A stretch of 51,460 nt of DNA from an uncultured Clostridia bacterium (GTDB taxonomy: Bacteria; Bacillota; Clostridia; Peptostreptococcales; Anaerovoracaceae), in NCBI GenBank assembly GCA_944382925.1, contig CALWNX010000025.1, forward strand, positions 1 through 51,460, written 5' to 3'. How positions within the stretch are numbered: position 1 is the stretch's first letter; each line of letters starts with the position of its first letter. Below are positions 6,977-51,308 of the stretch, in pieces. The notes under the pieces were generated by a model. The model did not search any database. It was not told where the DNA came from and saw only the letters and a list, made by a program, of their open reading frames with translations. A program made the position numbers and the translations under genes.

Positions 6977-7172
6977 TGAAAGGGAATACCCCCTTGCTTT
7001 TGCCGGCAAAACAGTCAAAAAAACAGGCTGAAAGAGACAAATTCCTGCCTCGGGCAGGCTCTTTCAGCCTCATTTTATTCTTGAGCACCGAAATAAAAGG
7101 CATTAGAGAATAAAATTTTGTCCTCTCTTCCCCTGCGGCGGTGACTCGCAGCAAAATGAGGATAAATTCTTG
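6977..7172 (+). repeat. family-1 intergenic element, copy A
   Basis: The 61-nt core (7073-7133) is 59/61 identical to 32062-32121, and the flanks are ~70% alignable. Sits between two GC-rich tandem arrays. Confidence 0.6.
7025..7082 (+). terminator. terminator-like hairpin embedded in family-1 repeat copy A, ~155 nt downstream of serS
   Basis: AGGCTGAAAGAG (7025-36) pairs with CTCTTTCAGCCT (7059-70), with inner pairing CCTGCC/GGCAGG. Followed by CATTTTATTCTT. Confidence 0.5.
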
Positions 7173-7175
7173 TCC

Positions 7176-7259
7176 CCTGGGCAGCACCGAACCCTGGGCA
7201 GCACCGCATCCTGGGCAGCACCGCATCCTGGACAGCACCGTACCCTGGGCAGCCTGCCC
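7176..7259. repeat. GC-rich tandem repeat (CCTGGGCAGCACCGNNN, 17-bp unit, ~4.9 copies)
   Basis: Read directly from the sequence: copies start at 7176, 7193, 7210, 7227 and 7244. Confidence 0.9.
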
Positions 7260-7335
7260 AAAATAATTCAGTTGACGAGCGCGGTGAGCTCTGATATTAT
7301 CAGTAATATAACCATGCTTTTTCGCCGGGGATTTA

Positions 7336-22817: not shown

Positions 22818-23684
22818 ATGAGTGAGATTATGATACCGGTATTGCTGGTAGTCGCGATGGGTTTCGTCTTTGCCGTGATCCTGACTATCGCTTCCAAGAT
22901 ATTCTTCGTACCTGTAGACGAGACCGTTACCAACCTCAGGGCTGAGCTGCCGGGCGCCAACTGCGGAGCCTGCGGCTTTGCCGGCTGCGACGATTACGCG
23001 GCGGCCCTGGCTGCTGATCCTTCGATCGGCGCCAACAAGTGCCCGGTCGGCGGTGCTGACGTAGCCGCCAAGCTGGCTGCGATCCTCGGCATCGACGCCG
23101 GTTCAACCGAGCCGCAGGTAGCTGTCGTAATGTGTAACGGCAACGCTCAGGCCGCCAAGAAGCTGATGGAATATCAGGGCCTTTCGACCTGCACGGCTGC
23201 CAAGCAGCTGTTCGGCGGCGACAACATGTGCCCTTACGGCTGTCTGGGTCTGGGCGACTGCGAGGCCGCCTGCGCTTACGACGCCATCCATGTCTGCGAC
23301 GGCGTGGCGGTAGTCAACAGAGATGCGTGCGTGGGCTGCGGCGTCTGTGCCAAGACCTGCCCTAACCACGTGATCAGAATTGCTCCGGCCAAGAACAAGG
23401 TAGTTGTTCAGTGCCATTCCAAGGACAGCGGCGCCAAGACCAGAAAGGCCTGCACCAACGGCTGCATCGCCTGCAAGAAGTGCGAGAAGGTCTGCAAGTT
23501 CGAGGCGATCAAGGTCGAGGACAACCACGCCATGATCGACCCGGAAAAGTGCAAGAACTGCGGTCTGTGCGCCAAGGAGTGTCCGACGGGCGCGATCAAC
23601 AACATGAGAGCAAAGAGAAAACCGGCAGCTTCTTCCGCTCCGGCTTCCTCCGCTCCTGCGGCTGAAGAAGCAAAAGAAGCGTAA
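22818..23684 (+). CDS. rnfB: Rnf complex subunit B (polyferredoxin)
   Basis: N-terminal TM helix, a CGACGFAGC motif and several CxxCxxCxxxCP clusters. Ala/Ser/Pro-rich tail. Confidence 0.92.
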   Translation: MSEIMIPVLLVVAMGFVFAVILTIASKIFFVPVDETVTNLRAELPGANCGACGFAGCDDYAAALAADPSIGANKCPVGGADVAAKLAAILGIDAGSTEPQVAVVMCNGNAQAAKKLMEYQGLSTCTAAKQLFGGDNMCPYGCLGLGDCEAACAYDAIHVCDGVAVVNRDACVGCGVCAKTCPNHVIRIAPAKNKVVVQCHSKDSGAKTRKACTNGCIACKKCEKVCKFEAIKVEDNHAMIDPEKCKNCGLCAKECPTGAINNMRAKRKPAASSAPASSAPAAEEAKEA

Positions 23685-23720
23685 ACCAACCTTTCTAATA
23701 TGATAAAAATATGATAAAAA

Positions 23721-23752
23721 CCACCCGCACCAAAGACGGCGCGGGTGGTTTT
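23721..23752 (+). terminator. intrinsic terminator of the rnf operon (hairpin copy 1)
   Basis: CCACCCGC...GCGGGTGG stem followed by TTTT, 37 nt after the rnfB stop. Confidence 0.8.
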
Positions 23753-24216
23753 GACTGTGGACAAACTCCGCTGCAAACAAATCCCGCCGCAGACAGCCCC
23801 GCCAGACCTGAGTCAGCTCGATGTTGGCTTTTTGCTGCGCCTGAGCCAAAACAGACAACGTCGGCGGCCGATGCCATTTCGCCCGTATGTTGTAATTAAA
23901 GAGCGAGCTTGGTTTTTGTTACAACATTTTTGCGGCGAACCGTACCCACACAGTCAGTAAAAGCAACCAATGTTGTATTTTTGCGGCAAAGCTGCACTGG
24001 TTACAACATTTTGGTTGTAATCACGGCAGGAATTTGCAAAATATTACAACATCGCGCCCAAGTCGCTCGCAAAAACGGCCCGGCTGACGCTCAATTGTTG
24101 TAGTTTTTTGTTTATAGGCAAAAAACTACAACATTCACCATTAAACGAAGAGAAAACCAGCAGCATCCCCAGATAAATTCACTAATGAAGTTGCCTGGGG
24201 GTTTGTCGACACTCTG
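23753..24216 (+). mobile_element. family-2 non-coding TIR element (MITE-like), full-length copy E
   Basis: Inverted ends GACTGTGGACAAACTCC (23753-69) and GGGGGTTTGTCGACACTCTG (24197-216). Abutted on both sides by a 30/33-identical copy of the rnf terminator hairpin (23719-52 and 24217-49). Confidence 0.55.
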
Positions 24217-24301
24217 AACCACCTCCGCCAAAGACGGCGCGGGTGGTTTGTTCTGTTGCTCAAACTTGGTTTTTGGCTAACAAAAAGCGCGCACTACGGC
24301 C

Positions 24302-29347: not shown

Positions 29348-29436
29348 GATGGCCTCCCTGCAGTCTCTTCGGTTCATGCCTTTTCCGATCATGCCTTTTC
29401 GGCTTTTCACCGCTCTTTTCTAAAAAAGCACTTCTC

Positions 29437-29672
29437 AAGTTGAATTTTGCAGAATTTTTCACCTCTTTTCCGCGAATCGCTGCTTCTGCAAGTTGAAAGT
29501 CAATGCTTTCTTTTCTTTTAGACGTGATTGCGTTGTCAAAGAGAAAAGGAAAGACTCATGTGCAAGGTGATAAAACCACGTTTTCAACTTGGCCGTGCTC
29601 GATACCGCAAGATAGAGGAGAAAAATTCTGCAAAATTCATCTTGGCAAGCGGCATTTTGGGGGTTTGGTGGA
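29437..29672 (+). repeat. family-2 element, 5'-truncated copy G
   Basis: AAGTTGAATTTTGCAGAATTTTTC...GCAAGTTGAAAG aligns at ~75% with 14613-14690 of copy C. An internal inverted copy (GAAAAATTCTGCAAAATTCATCTT) is present. The right end GGGGGTTTGGTGG resembles the TIR. Confidence 0.4.
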
Positions 29673-29680
29673 GAAAGCAA

Positions 29681-29814
29681 GCTTGCCGGCATCCGCAAGC
29701 CGCCGGCAACCCAAGCCGCCGGCATCCTCAAGCCGCCGGCAACCCAAGCCGCCGGCAACCCCAAGCCGCCGGCATCCGCAAGCCGCCGGCATCCCCAAGC
29801 CGCCGGCAGCGCCC
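29681..29814. repeat. GC-rich tandem repeat (GCCGCCGGCAWCCNCAA, 16-17-bp unit, ~8 copies)
   Basis: Contiguous head-to-tail copies ending at the stop codon of the Gx-transporter gene. Confidence 0.9.
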
Positions 29815-30390
29815 TTACACGTTCAGGTGCGGCAGCTTGTCGTAAAGTACGGCCGCGACAATACCGATGAGAATCCCGCTGATGAGCCCGGAAAACAGCA
29901 GCACCGCGAAATACGACATCAGCTTGAAGTTGGACATAATCAGACAGGCGACCAGCAGCTGACCCAGATTGTGAAAAACGCCGCCCGCCATGCTGACGCC
30001 CACCATGCTGAAAAGCCCCGTGCGATAAAGCAGGTACATGACCACGATGCTGAGAACGCCGCCGGCGAACGAATAAATCGCCCCGAACAGGCCGGTGAAC
30101 AAAAGCCCCGTGATGAGGATGCGCACGCAGTTGATGATAAAAGCGTACTTGAAGCCCAGACGGTAGATGGCGATCACGATCACCAGATTGGCAAGCCCCA
30201 GCTTGATGCCCGGAATCGGTACCGGCAGAGGAATCAGCGCCTCAATATACGAAAAGATCATCGCCATCGCCGCCAGAATAGCGCTGAGGGCGAGCCGCTT
30301 GGTGCGCAGAGCATAAGTGCGCGCCTTGGGTTTCGGCGAAGGCATGGACGACGGCCTCTGCGCCGCCGGCTTTTTATCCGGTGATGACAT
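29815..30390 (-). CDS. Gx transporter family protein (Hpre_diP_synt_I-like membrane protein)
   Basis: ~190 aa, polytopic (LSAILAAMAMIFSYIEALIPLPVPIPGIKLGLANLVIV). Sits in the conserved trio with the NusG-II protein and ApbE. Start uncertain (ATG 30390 or GTG 30399). Confidence 0.7.
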   Translation of the reverse strand: MSSPDKKPAAQRPSSMPSPKPKARTYALRTKRLALSAILAAMAMIFSYIEALIPLPVPIPGIKLGLANLVIVIAIYRLGFKYAFIINCVRILITGLLFTGLFGAIYSFAGGVLSIVVMYLLYRTGLFSMVGVSMAGGVFHNLGQLLVACLIMSNFKLMSYFAVLLFSGLISGILIGIVAAVLYDKLPHLNV

Positions 30391-31926: not shown

Positions 31927-32157
31927 CAAGGGAAGAGAGGACAAAATTTTCTCCTCTAACTGACGGCAATGATCCGTGCAAGGGAATTTTCTGGCTTTTC
32001 TGCCTGTCAAGCAGCCAAAAAACAGGCCGATTCCTGCCATAAAGAAGCTCTGCAAGCCATGTTTTATTCTTGAGCGCCGATATAAAAGGCATTAGAGAAT
32101 AAAATTTTGTCCTCTCTTCCCTTGGAGCGGTGAGTTTGATTAAAAAGAGGGGAAATT
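31927..32157 (+). repeat. family-1 intergenic element, copy H, with 33-bp terminal inverted repeats
   Basis: CAAGGGAAGAGAGGACAAAATTTTCTCCTCTAA (31927-59) versus TTAGAGAATAAAATTTTGTCCTCTCTTCCCTTG (32092-124): 31/33 complementary, 132-bp spacer. Confidence 0.65.
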
Positions 32158-44794: not shown

Positions 44795-44820
44795 GCGTTC
44801 TTCATTGTAAATACGGCCCG

Positions 44821-44946
44821 CCGCGCCGCGCCGCTGACAAAAATTGCGCCCGGCCGAAGCCGGCCGCGCTCGGATGAAGCCGCCTGCGCCGCGCCGCTGA
44901 CAAAAATTGCGCTCGCCGAAGCCGGCCGCGCCGCGCCGCTGACAAA
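44821..44946. repeat. GC-rich repeat array containing CGCGCCGCTGACAAAAATTGCGC (2 full copies + 1 partial)
   Basis: GCTGACAA starts at 44833, 44896 and 44938. Intervening CCGAAGCCGGCCGCG blocks are also repeated. Confidence 0.75.
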
Positions 44947-44989
44947 TTTTGAAATTTTTTTGAAAAATGTCACGAAATTCAGGTAAAAT

Positions 44990-45038
44990 CGGCTGAATTC
45001 TTTTGAAAAAGACTAAAAACTGTAAAAATTCGCTTATT
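44990..45038 (+). promoter_or_regulatory. second copy of the CGGCTGAATTC-N19-CTGTAAAAATT motif, ~340-380 bp upstream of P1
   Basis: CGGCTGAATTC at 44990-45000 and CTGTAAAAATT at 45020-45030, compared with 47856-66 and 47885-95 (spacers 19 and 18 nt). Confidence 0.35.
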
Positions 45039-45371
45039 TTTTAAAAAATATCAGCAAATTCGTCGATTTTGCTGACAAAATTTTAGAAAAAACATATTTT
45101 TTACAACTTTCACTTCAGGTTACCCTGATCAGAGCACCATTTCTGGCCATTTGCTGACAAATTTCGGGACAATATGAAAAAAAGTCAGCTCTGCCGCGCC
45201 CGTCTGCTGACAAAACCGGCGCAGGCCGCACCCGGCCGCCGCGCCCATCTGCGGCACCCGGCCACACCCCGCCGCGTCCGGCCGCGGCTTCGGAAAGAGC
45301 CTGCAGAAAAATGAAATTATCCATGCAAAATCGCAGCGCAAGCCACTTGGCATGCAATCCGCGTTTATAAT

Positions 45372-45388
45372 TGGCATGTAATTTGCAT
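45372..45388 (+). promoter_or_regulatory. sigma-54 (-24/-12) promoter P1
   Basis: TGGCAT-GTAAT-TTGCAT matches TGGCAC-N5-TTGCW. GG (45373-74) and GC (45385-86) are at canonical spacing. Lies 73 nt upstream of the ATG at 45460. Confidence 0.75.
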
Positions 45389-46428: not shown

Positions 46429-47850
46429 ATGCTCAGCAGATATGTAGAACAGCTTCTGAATATCTACAATTACATCGACGGGATCATCATTACCGACAAG
46501 GACGGATATGTCGAGTATTACAAGAATTTCCGCCCTGATTTGAACAACCTCAAGGAATCTGAGGTGCGCCGCAAGCATATCACGGAGGTCTATCCCGATC
46601 TGACTGAGGAAACCAGCAGCATTCTCAAGGTGCTGAAAACCGGCAAGCCTATCTCCAACGAATTTCAGGTGCTCAAGACCTTTAAGGGGCAGAGCATCAA
46701 CGCTATCAATTCTACCCTGCCCATCAGGCAGGACGACGAAATCATCGGCGCGGTAGATGTATCCCGCTACCTTGATCCGCCGTACCAGCGGCAGGACATC
46801 GTCATTTCCCTCAAGAAGAACGTCGCCGCCACCAACCTTTATACGGTCGACGACATCATCACCCATTCGCGGGAAATGGAGATGCTCAAGGAGCGCATTC
46901 CAATGGTAGCGGATACCGACTCTACCGTGCTGATCTACGGCGAAACCGGCACCGGCAAGGAGATGGTCGCGCAGTCCATCCACACCTCCAGCCGCCGCCG
47001 CGGTCATAAGTTCATTTCGCAGAACTGCGCCGCGATCCCGGCCAACCTGCTGGAGAGCATTCTGTTCGGCACCGTCCGGGGCAGCTACACGGGGGCGGAA
47101 AACAAGCCGGGGCTCTTTGAGGTCGCACACGGCGGCACGCTCTTTCTCGACGAGATCAACTCGATGGAAAAAAGCGTGCAGTCCAAGATCCTCAAGGCCA
47201 TCGAGGAAAAGCAGGTTACGCGCCTGGGCGGCTATGAACCGATCAAGACCGATGTCAAGATCATCTCGGCGATCAACAGCGATCCGCTCAAATGCGTGGA
47301 AGAGGGGCGCATCAGGAACGACCTCTTCTACCGCCTCAGCGTTGTGCAGCTCAACATACCGCCGCTCAGACGTAGGCGCGAGGACCTGTTCCACCTGGCG
47401 GACAGCTTTATCGCTGAATTCAACAGGAGCATGCACCGGGACATCATGGGACTTGACGAAGAGGTCAAGGAGCTTTTCAGCGCCTACGACTGGCCCGGCA
47501 ACGTGCGCGAGCTACGCAACATCATTGAGGGCGCCTTTAACGTGGCCGGCAGCCGCTTCATTCAGGTCGGCGACTTGCCTGCATACCTGACCAGAAGGCT
47601 CTTTTCGCGGCAGACGGCTGACTATCCGCAGGCGGGCCTGCAGGCGCAGAGCGGAAACGAACCGGAGACCTGCCTCACGCTCGAGCAGGCCGTGCAGCAG
47701 TACGAGCGGGACTTTATCCTGCGGGCCATAAAGGCCACGGACAGTCTGGTAGAGGCCGCCGCGCTGCTGGGGCTGAGCAAGCAGAACCTCAACTACAAGC
47801 TGCATAAGCTGGGCATCGGCAAGGAGGAAACGCAGCGGCCAGGCAAATAG
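46429..47850 (+). CDS. sigma-54-dependent transcriptional activator (PAS-like sensor + AAA+ + Fis-type HTH; RocR-like architecture)
   Basis: Walker A GETGTGKE, GAFTGA-variant GSYTGA, GGTLFLDEI, WPGNVRELRN, and C-terminal HTH (EAAALLGLSKQNLNYKLHKLGI). ~150-aa N-terminal PAS-like domain. Confidence 0.9.
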   Translation: MLSRYVEQLLNIYNYIDGIIITDKDGYVEYYKNFRPDLNNLKESEVRRKHITEVYPDLTEETSSILKVLKTGKPISNEFQVLKTFKGQSINAINSTLPIRQDDEIIGAVDVSRYLDPPYQRQDIVISLKKNVAATNLYTVDDIITHSREMEMLKERIPMVADTDSTVLIYGETGTGKEMVAQSIHTSSRRRGHKFISQNCAAIPANLLESILFGTVRGSYTGAENKPGLFEVAHGGTLFLDEINSMEKSVQSKILKAIEEKQVTRLGGYEPIKTDVKIISAINSDPLKCVEEGRIRNDLFYRLSVVQLNIPPLRRRREDLFHLADSFIAEFNRSMHRDIMGLDEEVKELFSAYDWPGNVRELRNIIEGAFNVAGSRFIQVGDLPAYLTRRLFSRQTADYPQAGLQAQSGNEPETCLTLEQAVQQYERDFILRAIKATDSLVEAAALLGLSKQNLNYKLHKLGIGKEETQRPGK

Positions 47851-50701: not shown

Positions 50702-50735
50702 GCAAAGGGATGGCCTTGGGGCCATCCTTTTGCGT
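50702..50735 (+). terminator. intrinsic terminator after the M20 amidohydrolase gene
   Basis: GCAAAGGGATGGCC-TTGG-GGCCATCCTTTTGC stem-loop with a T-rich 3' side. Confidence 0.7.
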
Positions 50736-50887
50736 AGACTGTAGACAAATCCCCAAACAACTTCATTTGTGAATTTATCCGGGGGTGCTGGCTTTCTCTT
50801 CGTTTAATTGGTAAATGTTGTAGTTTTTTTGAAGATGTGAACTTCTGTTAGAGAACATATACAACTGAATACGGATTTGTCTGATGG
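50735..50887 (-). repeat. family-2 element, short (153-bp) internally deleted copy L, inverted orientation
   Basis: TAGACTGTAGACAAATCCCC plus the next ~75 nt align at ~85% with the reverse complement of 24118-24216. The other end is GGATTTGTCTGATGG (50873-87). Confidence 0.45.
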
Positions 50888-50947: not shown

Positions 50948-51308
50948 AAATCAGAACACAGTGTCCAAAATCGGCTATCCGCACGGGCTGTAAGGTAGGG
51001 GGCAAGTCTGCCCATATGTACCTTGAAAACTTCACAGCAGCCGTCAGAGGGATACCTGCCGCAACGGACAGCAGGCGATGATATGAGCCTGCCCATTGCT
51101 TAATCCATGCACAGCATAGACAGTGAAAACGTCGCTTTGGGAAAGCGTGGAACCGTATGGAATGGCTGTGCTTACATATCCCCGTCCTTGTGGCAGGGAT
51201 ATAAAAAATTTTAAGGAGGTCGAATGCCTATGGACAAGTATGCAACAACCAGACGAAAGCGGAAGGAGGACACCCATGCAAAAGCTGAACATGAATATAA
51301 CTGAATTT

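Follow-up and report, generated by a model that had tools for sequence, protein, structure and literature searches.

A probable transposase-less miniature of the IS1182 family between duplicated terminator hairpins in an uncultured Clostridia genome

Direct repeats of 0-60 bp are given for insertion sequences (IS) of the IS1182 family (ISfinder figure). Several members of this family have been described by what they insert into: all insertion sites but one of ISCbo5 are hairpins at gene ends (PMC3098183), and IS1272 and TnSha1 target terminator hairpins without any consensus in primary sequence, one target receiving repeated insertions in both orientations (PMC4923244). Long and variable direct repeats at palindromic hairpins have been described for the family (PMC4923244, citing Siguier 2015), the mechanism of which is entered as unknown in a review table (PMC6199540). 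Duplication of a hairpin is already documented for IS1182-family elements (PMC3098183, PMC4923244) and, independently, for IS1630 (PMC2853133, PMC3317919). Here, we describe a stretch of 51,460 nucleotides from an uncultured Clostridia gut bacterium of the Anaerovoracaceae (assembly GCA_944382925.1, contig CALWNX010000025.1, positions 1 to 51,460 of the forward strand; "the window" hereafter), in which a non-coding insert downstream of rnfB is enclosed by two copies of the rnf terminator hairpin. We consider this insert, with a probability of roughly 0.85, to be a transposase-less miniature (MITE, for miniature inverted-repeat transposable element) of an IS1182-family insertion sequence, which targets hairpins and duplicates them.

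An initial annotation, made from the sequence alone, had described the insert as a non-coding element of 464 bp bounded by terminal inverted repeats; the bounded, non-coding insert stands, its length is 465 bp. The site, referred to as locus A, is made up as follows (coordinates are those of the window):

23719-23751, no strand: left hairpin, copy 1 of the rnfB terminator (target-site duplication), with a 13-bp stem containing one mismatch and the loop AAAGAC
23752-24216, plus strand: A-type MITE of 465 bp without coding capacity, 47% GC against 55% in the window
23752-23766, plus strand: left terminal inverted repeat TGACTGTGGACAAAC, in which the family terminus CAGACTGTAGACAAAC has degenerated
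23752-23799, plus strand: conserved left-end module, common to the B-type element (see below), 45/47 identical
23821-24135, no strand: A-type interior with the 8-mer ATGTTGTA/TACAACAT, six copies in both orientations
24167-24200, no strand: right-end subterminal stem-loop CCCCAG...CTGGGG, enclosing the palindrome AAyTTCAyWWrTGAArTT
24201-24216, minus strand: right terminal inverted repeat GTTTGTCGACACTCTG (reverse complement CAGAGTGTCGACAAAC), an imperfect match to the left end
24217-24249, no strand: right hairpin, copy 2 of the rnfB terminator, 30/33 identical, loop in the same orientation

The stop codon of rnfB lies at 23684, upstream of the left hairpin, and the right hairpin takes the terminator position of the convergent DUF4367 gene, 52 nt downstream of its stop codon (24302). 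The 33-mer AACCACCCGCACCAAAGACGGCGCGGGTGGTTT, which constitutes the left hairpin, recurs at 24217-24249 with three mismatches, both copies being on the plus strand and none being found elsewhere in the window; as shuffled sequences give an expectation of zero, the 33-bp duplication of the terminator hairpin is confirmed, and the imperfect inverted ends were likewise found where they had been placed, directly inside the two copies. Because the asymmetric six-base loop AAAGAC reads alike in both, the repeat is a direct and not an inverted duplication. The end modules of the element read CTCCGCTGCAAACAAATC on the left and contain AACTTCATTTGTGAA on the right. Its interior holds six copies of the 8-mer in 465 bp, compared with three in the remaining 51 kb, and includes a further hairpin with a perfect 15-bp stem (24096-24133). 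Since the termini are decayed and the hairpin duplicates have diverged at 3 of 33 positions, the rnf copy probably is an old, immobile insertion. In many conspecific strains (L001, L002, L005 and L007, compared with window positions 23908-24275) a 357-bp deletion between 11-bp direct repeats (CTTGGTTTTTG) has taken out the right two-thirds of the element together with the right hairpin copy; all conspecific contigs extending beyond the left rnf hairpin, except for one (L006), have the A element, either whole or internally deleted.

The same ends and the same layout around a hairpin of different sequence had been noticed at a second locus (B), which bears the description out:

14483-14511, no strand: left hairpin copy behind an M20 peptidase gene, AAGCTCCGGGGCAGTTATGCCCCGGAGCT, target duplication
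14513-14963, plus strand: B-type MITE of 451 bp, with A-type termini and end modules and an unrelated interior containing GTTGAA(A)/TTCAAC repeats
14965-14993, no strand: right hairpin copy, matching the left one at 27/29 positions (29/29 in strain L023)

As the right copy in L023 is a perfect direct repeat, the two mismatches in the window can be ascribed to later decay. Exactly two occurrences of the 40-nt left module were found in the window, where none is expected; resemblance between the A and B elements is limited to ~47 nt on the left (45/47) and ~45 nt on the right, and their interiors do not align. Among 22 contigs encoding the adjacent TetR protein, all 10 that were listed carry the B-type element, two of them in complete form and eight broken inside it. 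Both sites are places where a shared terminator is to be expected, since they lie between convergent genes, namely rnfB and an anti-sigma-like DUF4367 gene in the case of element A, and the M20 peptidase and TetR genes in the case of element B.

A third, partial copy (locus C) had been missed by the initial annotation, the two loci of which otherwise stand:

50704-50730, no strand: third target hairpin, behind the second M20 peptidase gene, occurring once in the window
50735-50835, minus strand: partial A-type copy C, right end, inverted, breaking off in the loop of an internal hairpin

Copy C is longer or complete in related strains (L016, L018). Loci A and C agree in their A-type interior, which L016 has in rearranged form. 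All three copies (A, B and C) keep the palindrome AAyTTCAyWWrTGAArTT; their reading frames are not conserved, for which reason we rejected the idea that the right end is coding. The break in copy C may reflect an assembly join at a repeat near the contig end. Beyond ~50835 unrelated sequence follows, with an open reading frame (ORF) of 26 codons preceded by a strong ribosome-binding site (about 51225-51305) and, on the minus strand, the C-terminus of an AraC-type regulator.

A fourth locus (D), with yet another unrelated hairpin, came from a metagenome scan for the element patterns (L013), which gave two real matches and one chance match. Here, alleles with and without the element could be compared next to an identical PepSY protein (P0123): in L036 a single hairpin passes directly into the flank and no element is present, L040 being a second empty allele, whereas in L037 and L038 the same hairpin is followed by CAGACTGTAGACAAACTCC..., and L032-34 are also occupied. 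At 6072-6999 of L036, 2 kb from the empty site, lies a gene for a large serine recombinase (Resolvase, Recombinase, Zn_ribbon_recom and DUF4368 domains), which has no evident link to the element.

As had been proposed, insertion duplicated hairpins that were part of the target: four loci carry four unrelated hairpins, locus D exists in empty and occupied form, and in a sister species, whose RnfB is 88% identical, the interval from rnfB to the DUF4367 gene holds no element and a single hairpin, which differs in sequence. Empty sites were thus found in relatives at locus D and, in the sister species, at rnf; for loci A and B no exact empty site exists among the available conspecific contigs. The element is also mobile and non-autonomous, given its presence at multiple loci (A, B and C in the window, D in related contigs, with presence/absence polymorphism), its two subfamilies, the contig breaks inside it and its want of coding capacity. 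At 465 and 451 bp and without a transposase gene, the two complete copies have the size of a MITE, and a flanking target-site duplication accompanies them at A (33 bp) and B (29 bp); it is lost or absent at C and D, so that the expectation of a duplicated hairpin around each copy holds for the first two loci only.

The family assignment rests on the termini. A relaxed blastn search (E<=10) with the 48-nt left end alone returned an exact 18-nt match in 31 Enterococcus faecium plasmids, which falls exactly on the left terminus of an annotated IS1182-family element of 1.5 kb with the ends CAGACTGTAGACAAAC... and ...GTCTACAGTCTG; at the first of these sites, a 47-bp hairpin is perfectly repeated, in direct orientation, on both sides of the element. 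Both ends of the elements from Enterococcus and Listeria and of ISEfa7 have the terminus CAGACTGTAGACAAA (with 14/15 positions matching at the right end of the Listeria element), and that of an Aminobacter element, CAGACTGCTGACAAACCCC, is nearly the same; the proteins of ISEfa7 and of the Listeria and Aminobacter elements are 76%, 60% and 40% identical to that of the E. faecium element, respectively. Terminal inverted repeats common to MITE and parent family are therefore at hand, CAGACTGTAGACAAAC equalling the Enterococcus and Listeria termini and nearly equalling the Aminobacter one. The reference transposases reach 455-466 bits with the NCBIfam model NF033551 (IS1182 family, cut-off 270) and contain the Pfam domains DDE_Tnp_1_6 and DUF772.

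Around these full-length elements the same kind of duplication is found. Perfect direct duplications abut the termini at five of the six Enterococcus sites, each unit being a stem-loop, and measure 47, 27, 22, 21 and 22 bp if one or two bases ambiguous with the element terminus are included (45, 25, 21, 19 and 21 bp as scored by script without them); at the sixth site, a partial hairpin lies to one side of the element. Perfect hairpin duplications of 21 and 25 bp surround the Listeria and Aminobacter copies, respectively, and the ISEfa7 copy has a hairpin on one side and an IS256 element on the other. Altogether, a direct stem-loop duplication of about 21-47 bp was seen at 7/9 IS1182-type insertions examined, and both the window elements and the reference elements show the habit, characteristic of the family, of inserting at palindromes or terminator hairpins with direct repeats that are long and variable. 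Just inside the right terminus, the full-length relatives have a stem-loop analogous to that of the A-type element. The left ends of the ISEfa7 and Listeria elements (L050, L051) further hold, about 30 nt inward, their own terminus a second time in inverted form (CAGACTGTAGAC...GTCTACAGTC), and can for this reason form a hairpin themselves, which may be relevant to a transposase recognising hairpins.

What the window elements lack is the gene. No transposase or recombinase domain was detected by Pfam search of the ORFs in the window, and tblastn with four IS1182 transposases revealed nothing significant in the elements or the window, not even a remnant, in agreement with what had been annotated. 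The DDE transposase of autonomous IS1182 elements (NF033551, or DDE_Tnp_1_6 plus DUF772) is not encoded by the window elements and, as neither a transposase ORF nor a remnant of one is present, we class the element as a derivative and not as an insertion sequence. The surroundings are those of an ordinary chromosome, with genes for UPF0182 and glutamine synthetase-like proteins, SerRS, an Opp transporter, M20 peptidases, the rnfCDGEAB operon, pairs of ECF sigma and anti-sigma factors, GlnRS and others. The window makes up a complete contig, and a protein from an Anaerovoracaceae MAG is among the members of the cluster that its RnfA belongs to at 90% identity. Pattern scans with the left module and the right end, exact and degenerate, gave no real matches in GTDB representative genomes and IMG/VR, and whole-element blastn found nothing in PLSDB. 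The family of the absent partner can be named from the IS1182-family elements with the same termini; no autonomous element carrying the MITE's own left module turned up in these collections.

Compared with the clade of IS1182 elements having CAGACTGTAGACAAA termini (ISEfa7-like Enterococcus plasmid elements and those of Listeria and Aminobacter), the window elements agree in the terminal 15-19 nt at both ends and in the stem-loop inside the right terminus; with this clade as well as with ISCbo5/ISBma2 (Clostridium botulinum group III and C. novyi) they share insertion at gene-end stem-loops without sequence consensus and direct duplication of the whole stem-loop, the 29-33 bp duplicated here being inside the range of the relatives. 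They differ in that the relatives are about 1.5 kb long and encode a transposase, whereas the window elements have 451-465 bp and neither gene nor remnant, their interiors are unrelated to those of IS1182 insertion sequences, they form two subfamilies, and their host is an uncultured Clostridia lineage with a GC content of ~55%. The staphylococcal IS1272/TnSha1, also of the IS1182 family, resemble them in the multiple independent insertions into one hairpin in both orientations, which may explain the arrangement in L006; IS1272, however, is reported to delete part of the hairpin and not to duplicate it, whereas two window loci carry complete duplications. Copies with one hairpin, as at loci C and D, could be an IS1272-like outcome or the result of later deletion. 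Classical MITEs (Correia, RUP, MITEAba12) are likewise small, multi-copy, intergenic and strongly folding, with terminal inverted repeats, the termini of a parent IS and no transposase, but have duplications of 2-9 bp; a 2024 review of MITEs mentions neither a link to IS30 nor long target duplications (PMC10969869). Members of the IS1202 family also have ends containing TGT and can produce long target duplications, the lengths of which are fixed within each group (5-6, 16-17 or 27-28 bp; bioRxiv 10.1101/2022.12.17.520857); this family was ruled out, as the duplicated unit here is always a palindrome, with the length of the duplication following that of the hairpin (29 and 33 bp in the window, about 21-47 bp among the relatives).

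It should also be noted that several observations weigh against the IS1182 assignment or fall short of what it would ideally show. Identity to known IS1182 elements is confined to 15-19 terminal nucleotides with a bare BLAST E value of about 10, and so short a match convinces only by its exact coincidence with IS termini at the two ends, together with the same hairpin duplication. An autonomous IS1182-family element with the MITE's 47-nt left module was not found in GTDB representative genomes, IMG/VR or PLSDB. At loci A and B, all available conspecific contigs are either occupied or broken inside the element, the latter being expected for a repeat. Both hairpin copies are retained at two of the four loci only (A and B): copy C in L016 has both termini and a single hairpin, and the occupied allele of locus D is without right terminus, second hairpin and ~25 nt of flank, a truncation seen in all three contigs found. 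Finally, IS1272 has been reported with partial deletion of the hairpin and not with its duplication (PMC4923244).

Four other explanations were weighed against, or alongside, a MITE of the IS1182 family. Mobilisation by an IS30-family transposase of the IS1630 type came to mind because IS1630 produces 19-26 bp duplications of inverted repeats (PMC2853133) and, with inverted repeats of 27 bp, duplications of 16, 23, 25 and 26 bp, some copies having none (PMC3317919), and because the left end of IS30 begins with TGTAGA, similar to the TGTAGAC inside the window terminus. This similarity extends over only 6 nt, which lie 4-5 nt out of register with the real terminus (the comparison was made with the ends of IS30), whereas 15-19 terminal nucleotides at both ends match IS1182-family elements with the same duplication, so that we regard the explanation as very improbable. 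With the phenotype confirmed in the literature and the IS30 termini failing to match, IS1630 (Mycoplasma fermentans) was demoted to an analogue, working alike with a transposase of a different family, and not a relative. About as improbable is a cassette moved or flipped by a site-specific recombinase (of the inverton, Xer/dif-like or integron-like kind) using the hairpins or the inverted ends as sites. It would accommodate the rnf hairpin joined in L006, via a hybrid terminus, to the inverted right end of the other subfamily, the right locus-B hairpin that in L022 and L029 is an inverted and not a direct copy of the left one, and the combination of conserved ends with interchangeable interiors. 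Yet the same element was never seen in both orientations at one locus, being uniformly oriented in 8 contigs at the rnf locus (A-type) and in the 10 contigs listed at the TetR locus (B-type), although assemblies cannot exclude minor orientations; a common core site is missing, hairpin sequence, stem length and loop length all differing between loci; the window encodes no recombinase and the full-length relatives with the same ends encode DDE transposases; and independent insertions in both orientations into one hairpin are known for IS1272/TnSha1 (PMC4923244).

That the segment is a resident locus, a small RNA or regulatory region lying between two independent terminators of coincidental similarity, is the least credible of all: the element does fold better than shuffled sequence (z = -5.3, -3.6 and -4.1), which is true of both subfamilies, lies between convergent genes and, in its rnf and 14.5-kb copies, is present in essentially all conspecific contigs, but any MITE would fold strongly owing to its inverted termini and internal inverted repeats, the same ends recur at four or more loci with unrelated hairpins, one of which has presence and absence alleles, a sister species is without the element and the termini equal IS termini; the insertion polymorphism contradicts a purely resident origin. 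Searches with Rfam gave no matches in the window at gathering score and sub-threshold matches at chance level only within 23650-24300, and a promoter scan of the A-type element revealed no promoter-like site. More compatible with the preferred explanation is an element of IS1182-MITE origin which has since been domesticated, the interiors of which (8-mer arrays in the A-type, GTTGAA arrays in the B-type) would serve as functional modules, such as arrays for protein binding or RNAs, and be kept by selection between the duplicated terminators. Enrichment of the 8-mer in the A-type element, conservation of its interior between loci A and C, the apparent fixation of loci A and B in the species and the resemblance of part of the B-type interior to 29405-29510 speak in its favour; the loss of the right 357 bp of the rnf copy in many strains with no sign of counter-selection, the interiors rearranged between strains (L016) and the lack of a promoter or known RNA family speak against it, and we think it unlikely.

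For the MITE of IS1182 origin, a course of events can be proposed. The element would have kept only what a DDE transposase supplied in trans needs, namely the ~15-bp termini CAGACTGTAGACAAAC and the adjacent end modules, which such an enzyme would bind. Transposases of the IS1182 clade would choose palindromes able to form stem-loops, in practice intrinsic terminators at gene ends, and, in a staggered attack at both feet of the stem, join each end of the element to one of the two DNA strands; repair of the single-stranded gaps would then copy the whole hairpin, to give the order hairpin-element-hairpin, with the size of the duplication set by that of the local palindrome (29-33 bp in the window, about 21-47 bp among full-length relatives). 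A duplication that varies between about 21 and 47 bp, yet always coincides with a palindrome, is most simply explained by a transposase recognising the secondary structure of DNA, and an extruded cruciform, in which the two feet of the stem would be adjacent in space, is a possible target. Between convergent genes, each gene would keep a complete terminator and the insert would plausibly be transcriptionally insulated, making for an insertion of low cost. The proposal of the initial annotation, a mobile element or an absent partner of it that recognises or cuts around terminator stem-loops, finds support in termini matching IS1182 elements with the same hairpin-IS-hairpin layout, from which a transposase cutting around stem-loops appears to be implied. 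One may go further and suppose that IS1182-type transposases are structure-specific, attacking both strands at the foot of a cruciform or hairpin, so that a stagger short in space may become a duplication as long as the palindrome, and that the 450-bp MITEs are minimal natural substrates, perhaps retained as terminator-insulated modules able to move between distant Clostridia (as L012, described below, might indicate); we put this forward as a speculation which is rather doubtful in its entirety.

A number of related contigs contain arrangements worth recording in their own right. The last 60 nt of L006 (ERZ28614075 scaffold_76450) comprise the rnf hairpin, the family terminus and then, via a hybrid terminus, the inverted right end of a B-type element; a k-mer chimera is unlikely, as the exact shared sequence extends over only 14-17 nt, and the junction may represent an independent insertion into the same rnf hairpin. 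In L004 (1327-2339) an AT-rich IS256-family element (Transposase_mut) is situated within the left module of the rnf element, after ...CAAACAAATCC, and the 11-mer AATATGATAAA is present once compared to twice in the window (23697-23718). In L022 and L029, compared with window positions 14964-15008, the TetR-side hairpin, along with 9 nt of outer flank (GCCTAGGCTCC...), repeats the M20-side one in inverted orientation, which suggests gene conversion between palindromic duplicates. At 3480-3960 of L012 (ERZ779877 NODE-10480), the rnf hairpin occurs together with 20 nt of the sequence native to the region downstream of rnfB and with ~420 bp of a B-type element. The contig itself is Clostridium-like, with 25% GC and genes for YtfJ, ScpA, RecX and MarR; on one side of the insert is the MarR gene, whose stop codon overlaps a TGACTGTAGAC motif, and on the other a truncated AbiEii-like ORF. 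Either transfer between distant lineages or a low-coverage chimera would account for this arrangement.

Some further repeats and signals were observed in the window. The B-type interior at 14581-14690 resembles the intergenic stretch 29405-29510, upstream of a minus-strand gene starting near 29350, over ~70-110 nt at roughly 75% identity, both containing TTCAACTTG motifs. A second MITE-like family, with the ends GCARGGGAAGAGAGGACAAAATTTT and AAAATTTTGTCCTCTCTTCCC, has a copy of ~200 bp at 31927-32127 between convergent ApbE and GntR-aminotransferase genes and a partial one in the region 7100-7150 (139 nt, 78% identical); in L016, copy C has one end of this family 20 nt away from its left terminus. 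Several copies of GCCGCGCCGCTGACAAAAATTGCGC/GCTGACAAA precede an arginine-deiminase-like gene (44816-45225), followed by a textbook sigma-54 promoter (TGGCATGTAATTTGCA, 45372-45387) and, at 46429-47850, a sigma-54 activator gene. Tandem arrays of 16-17-nt repeats are located at 7176-7260 (CCTGGGCAGCACCGCAT, 4-5 times, intergenic) and at 29685-29834 (GCCGGCAWCCNCAAGCC, 7-9 times, inside an ORF without Pfam match).

An odd duplication of ~30 bp is thus, on the IS1182 reading, the signature of a known but poorly studied mode of transposition, and a simple rule for annotation follows from it: CAGACTGTAGACAAA termini located between two copies of a local terminator hairpin. While the duplication of the hairpin itself is already known for the IS1182 family, the non-autonomous, MITE-type members are new; they add transposase-less miniature versions to the family, none of which is described in the literature searched. 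Such miniature elements could serve as minimal substrates for testing how a transposase recognises the secondary structure of DNA, and they provide an example of mobile DNA settling between convergent genes, each of which is left with a complete terminator.

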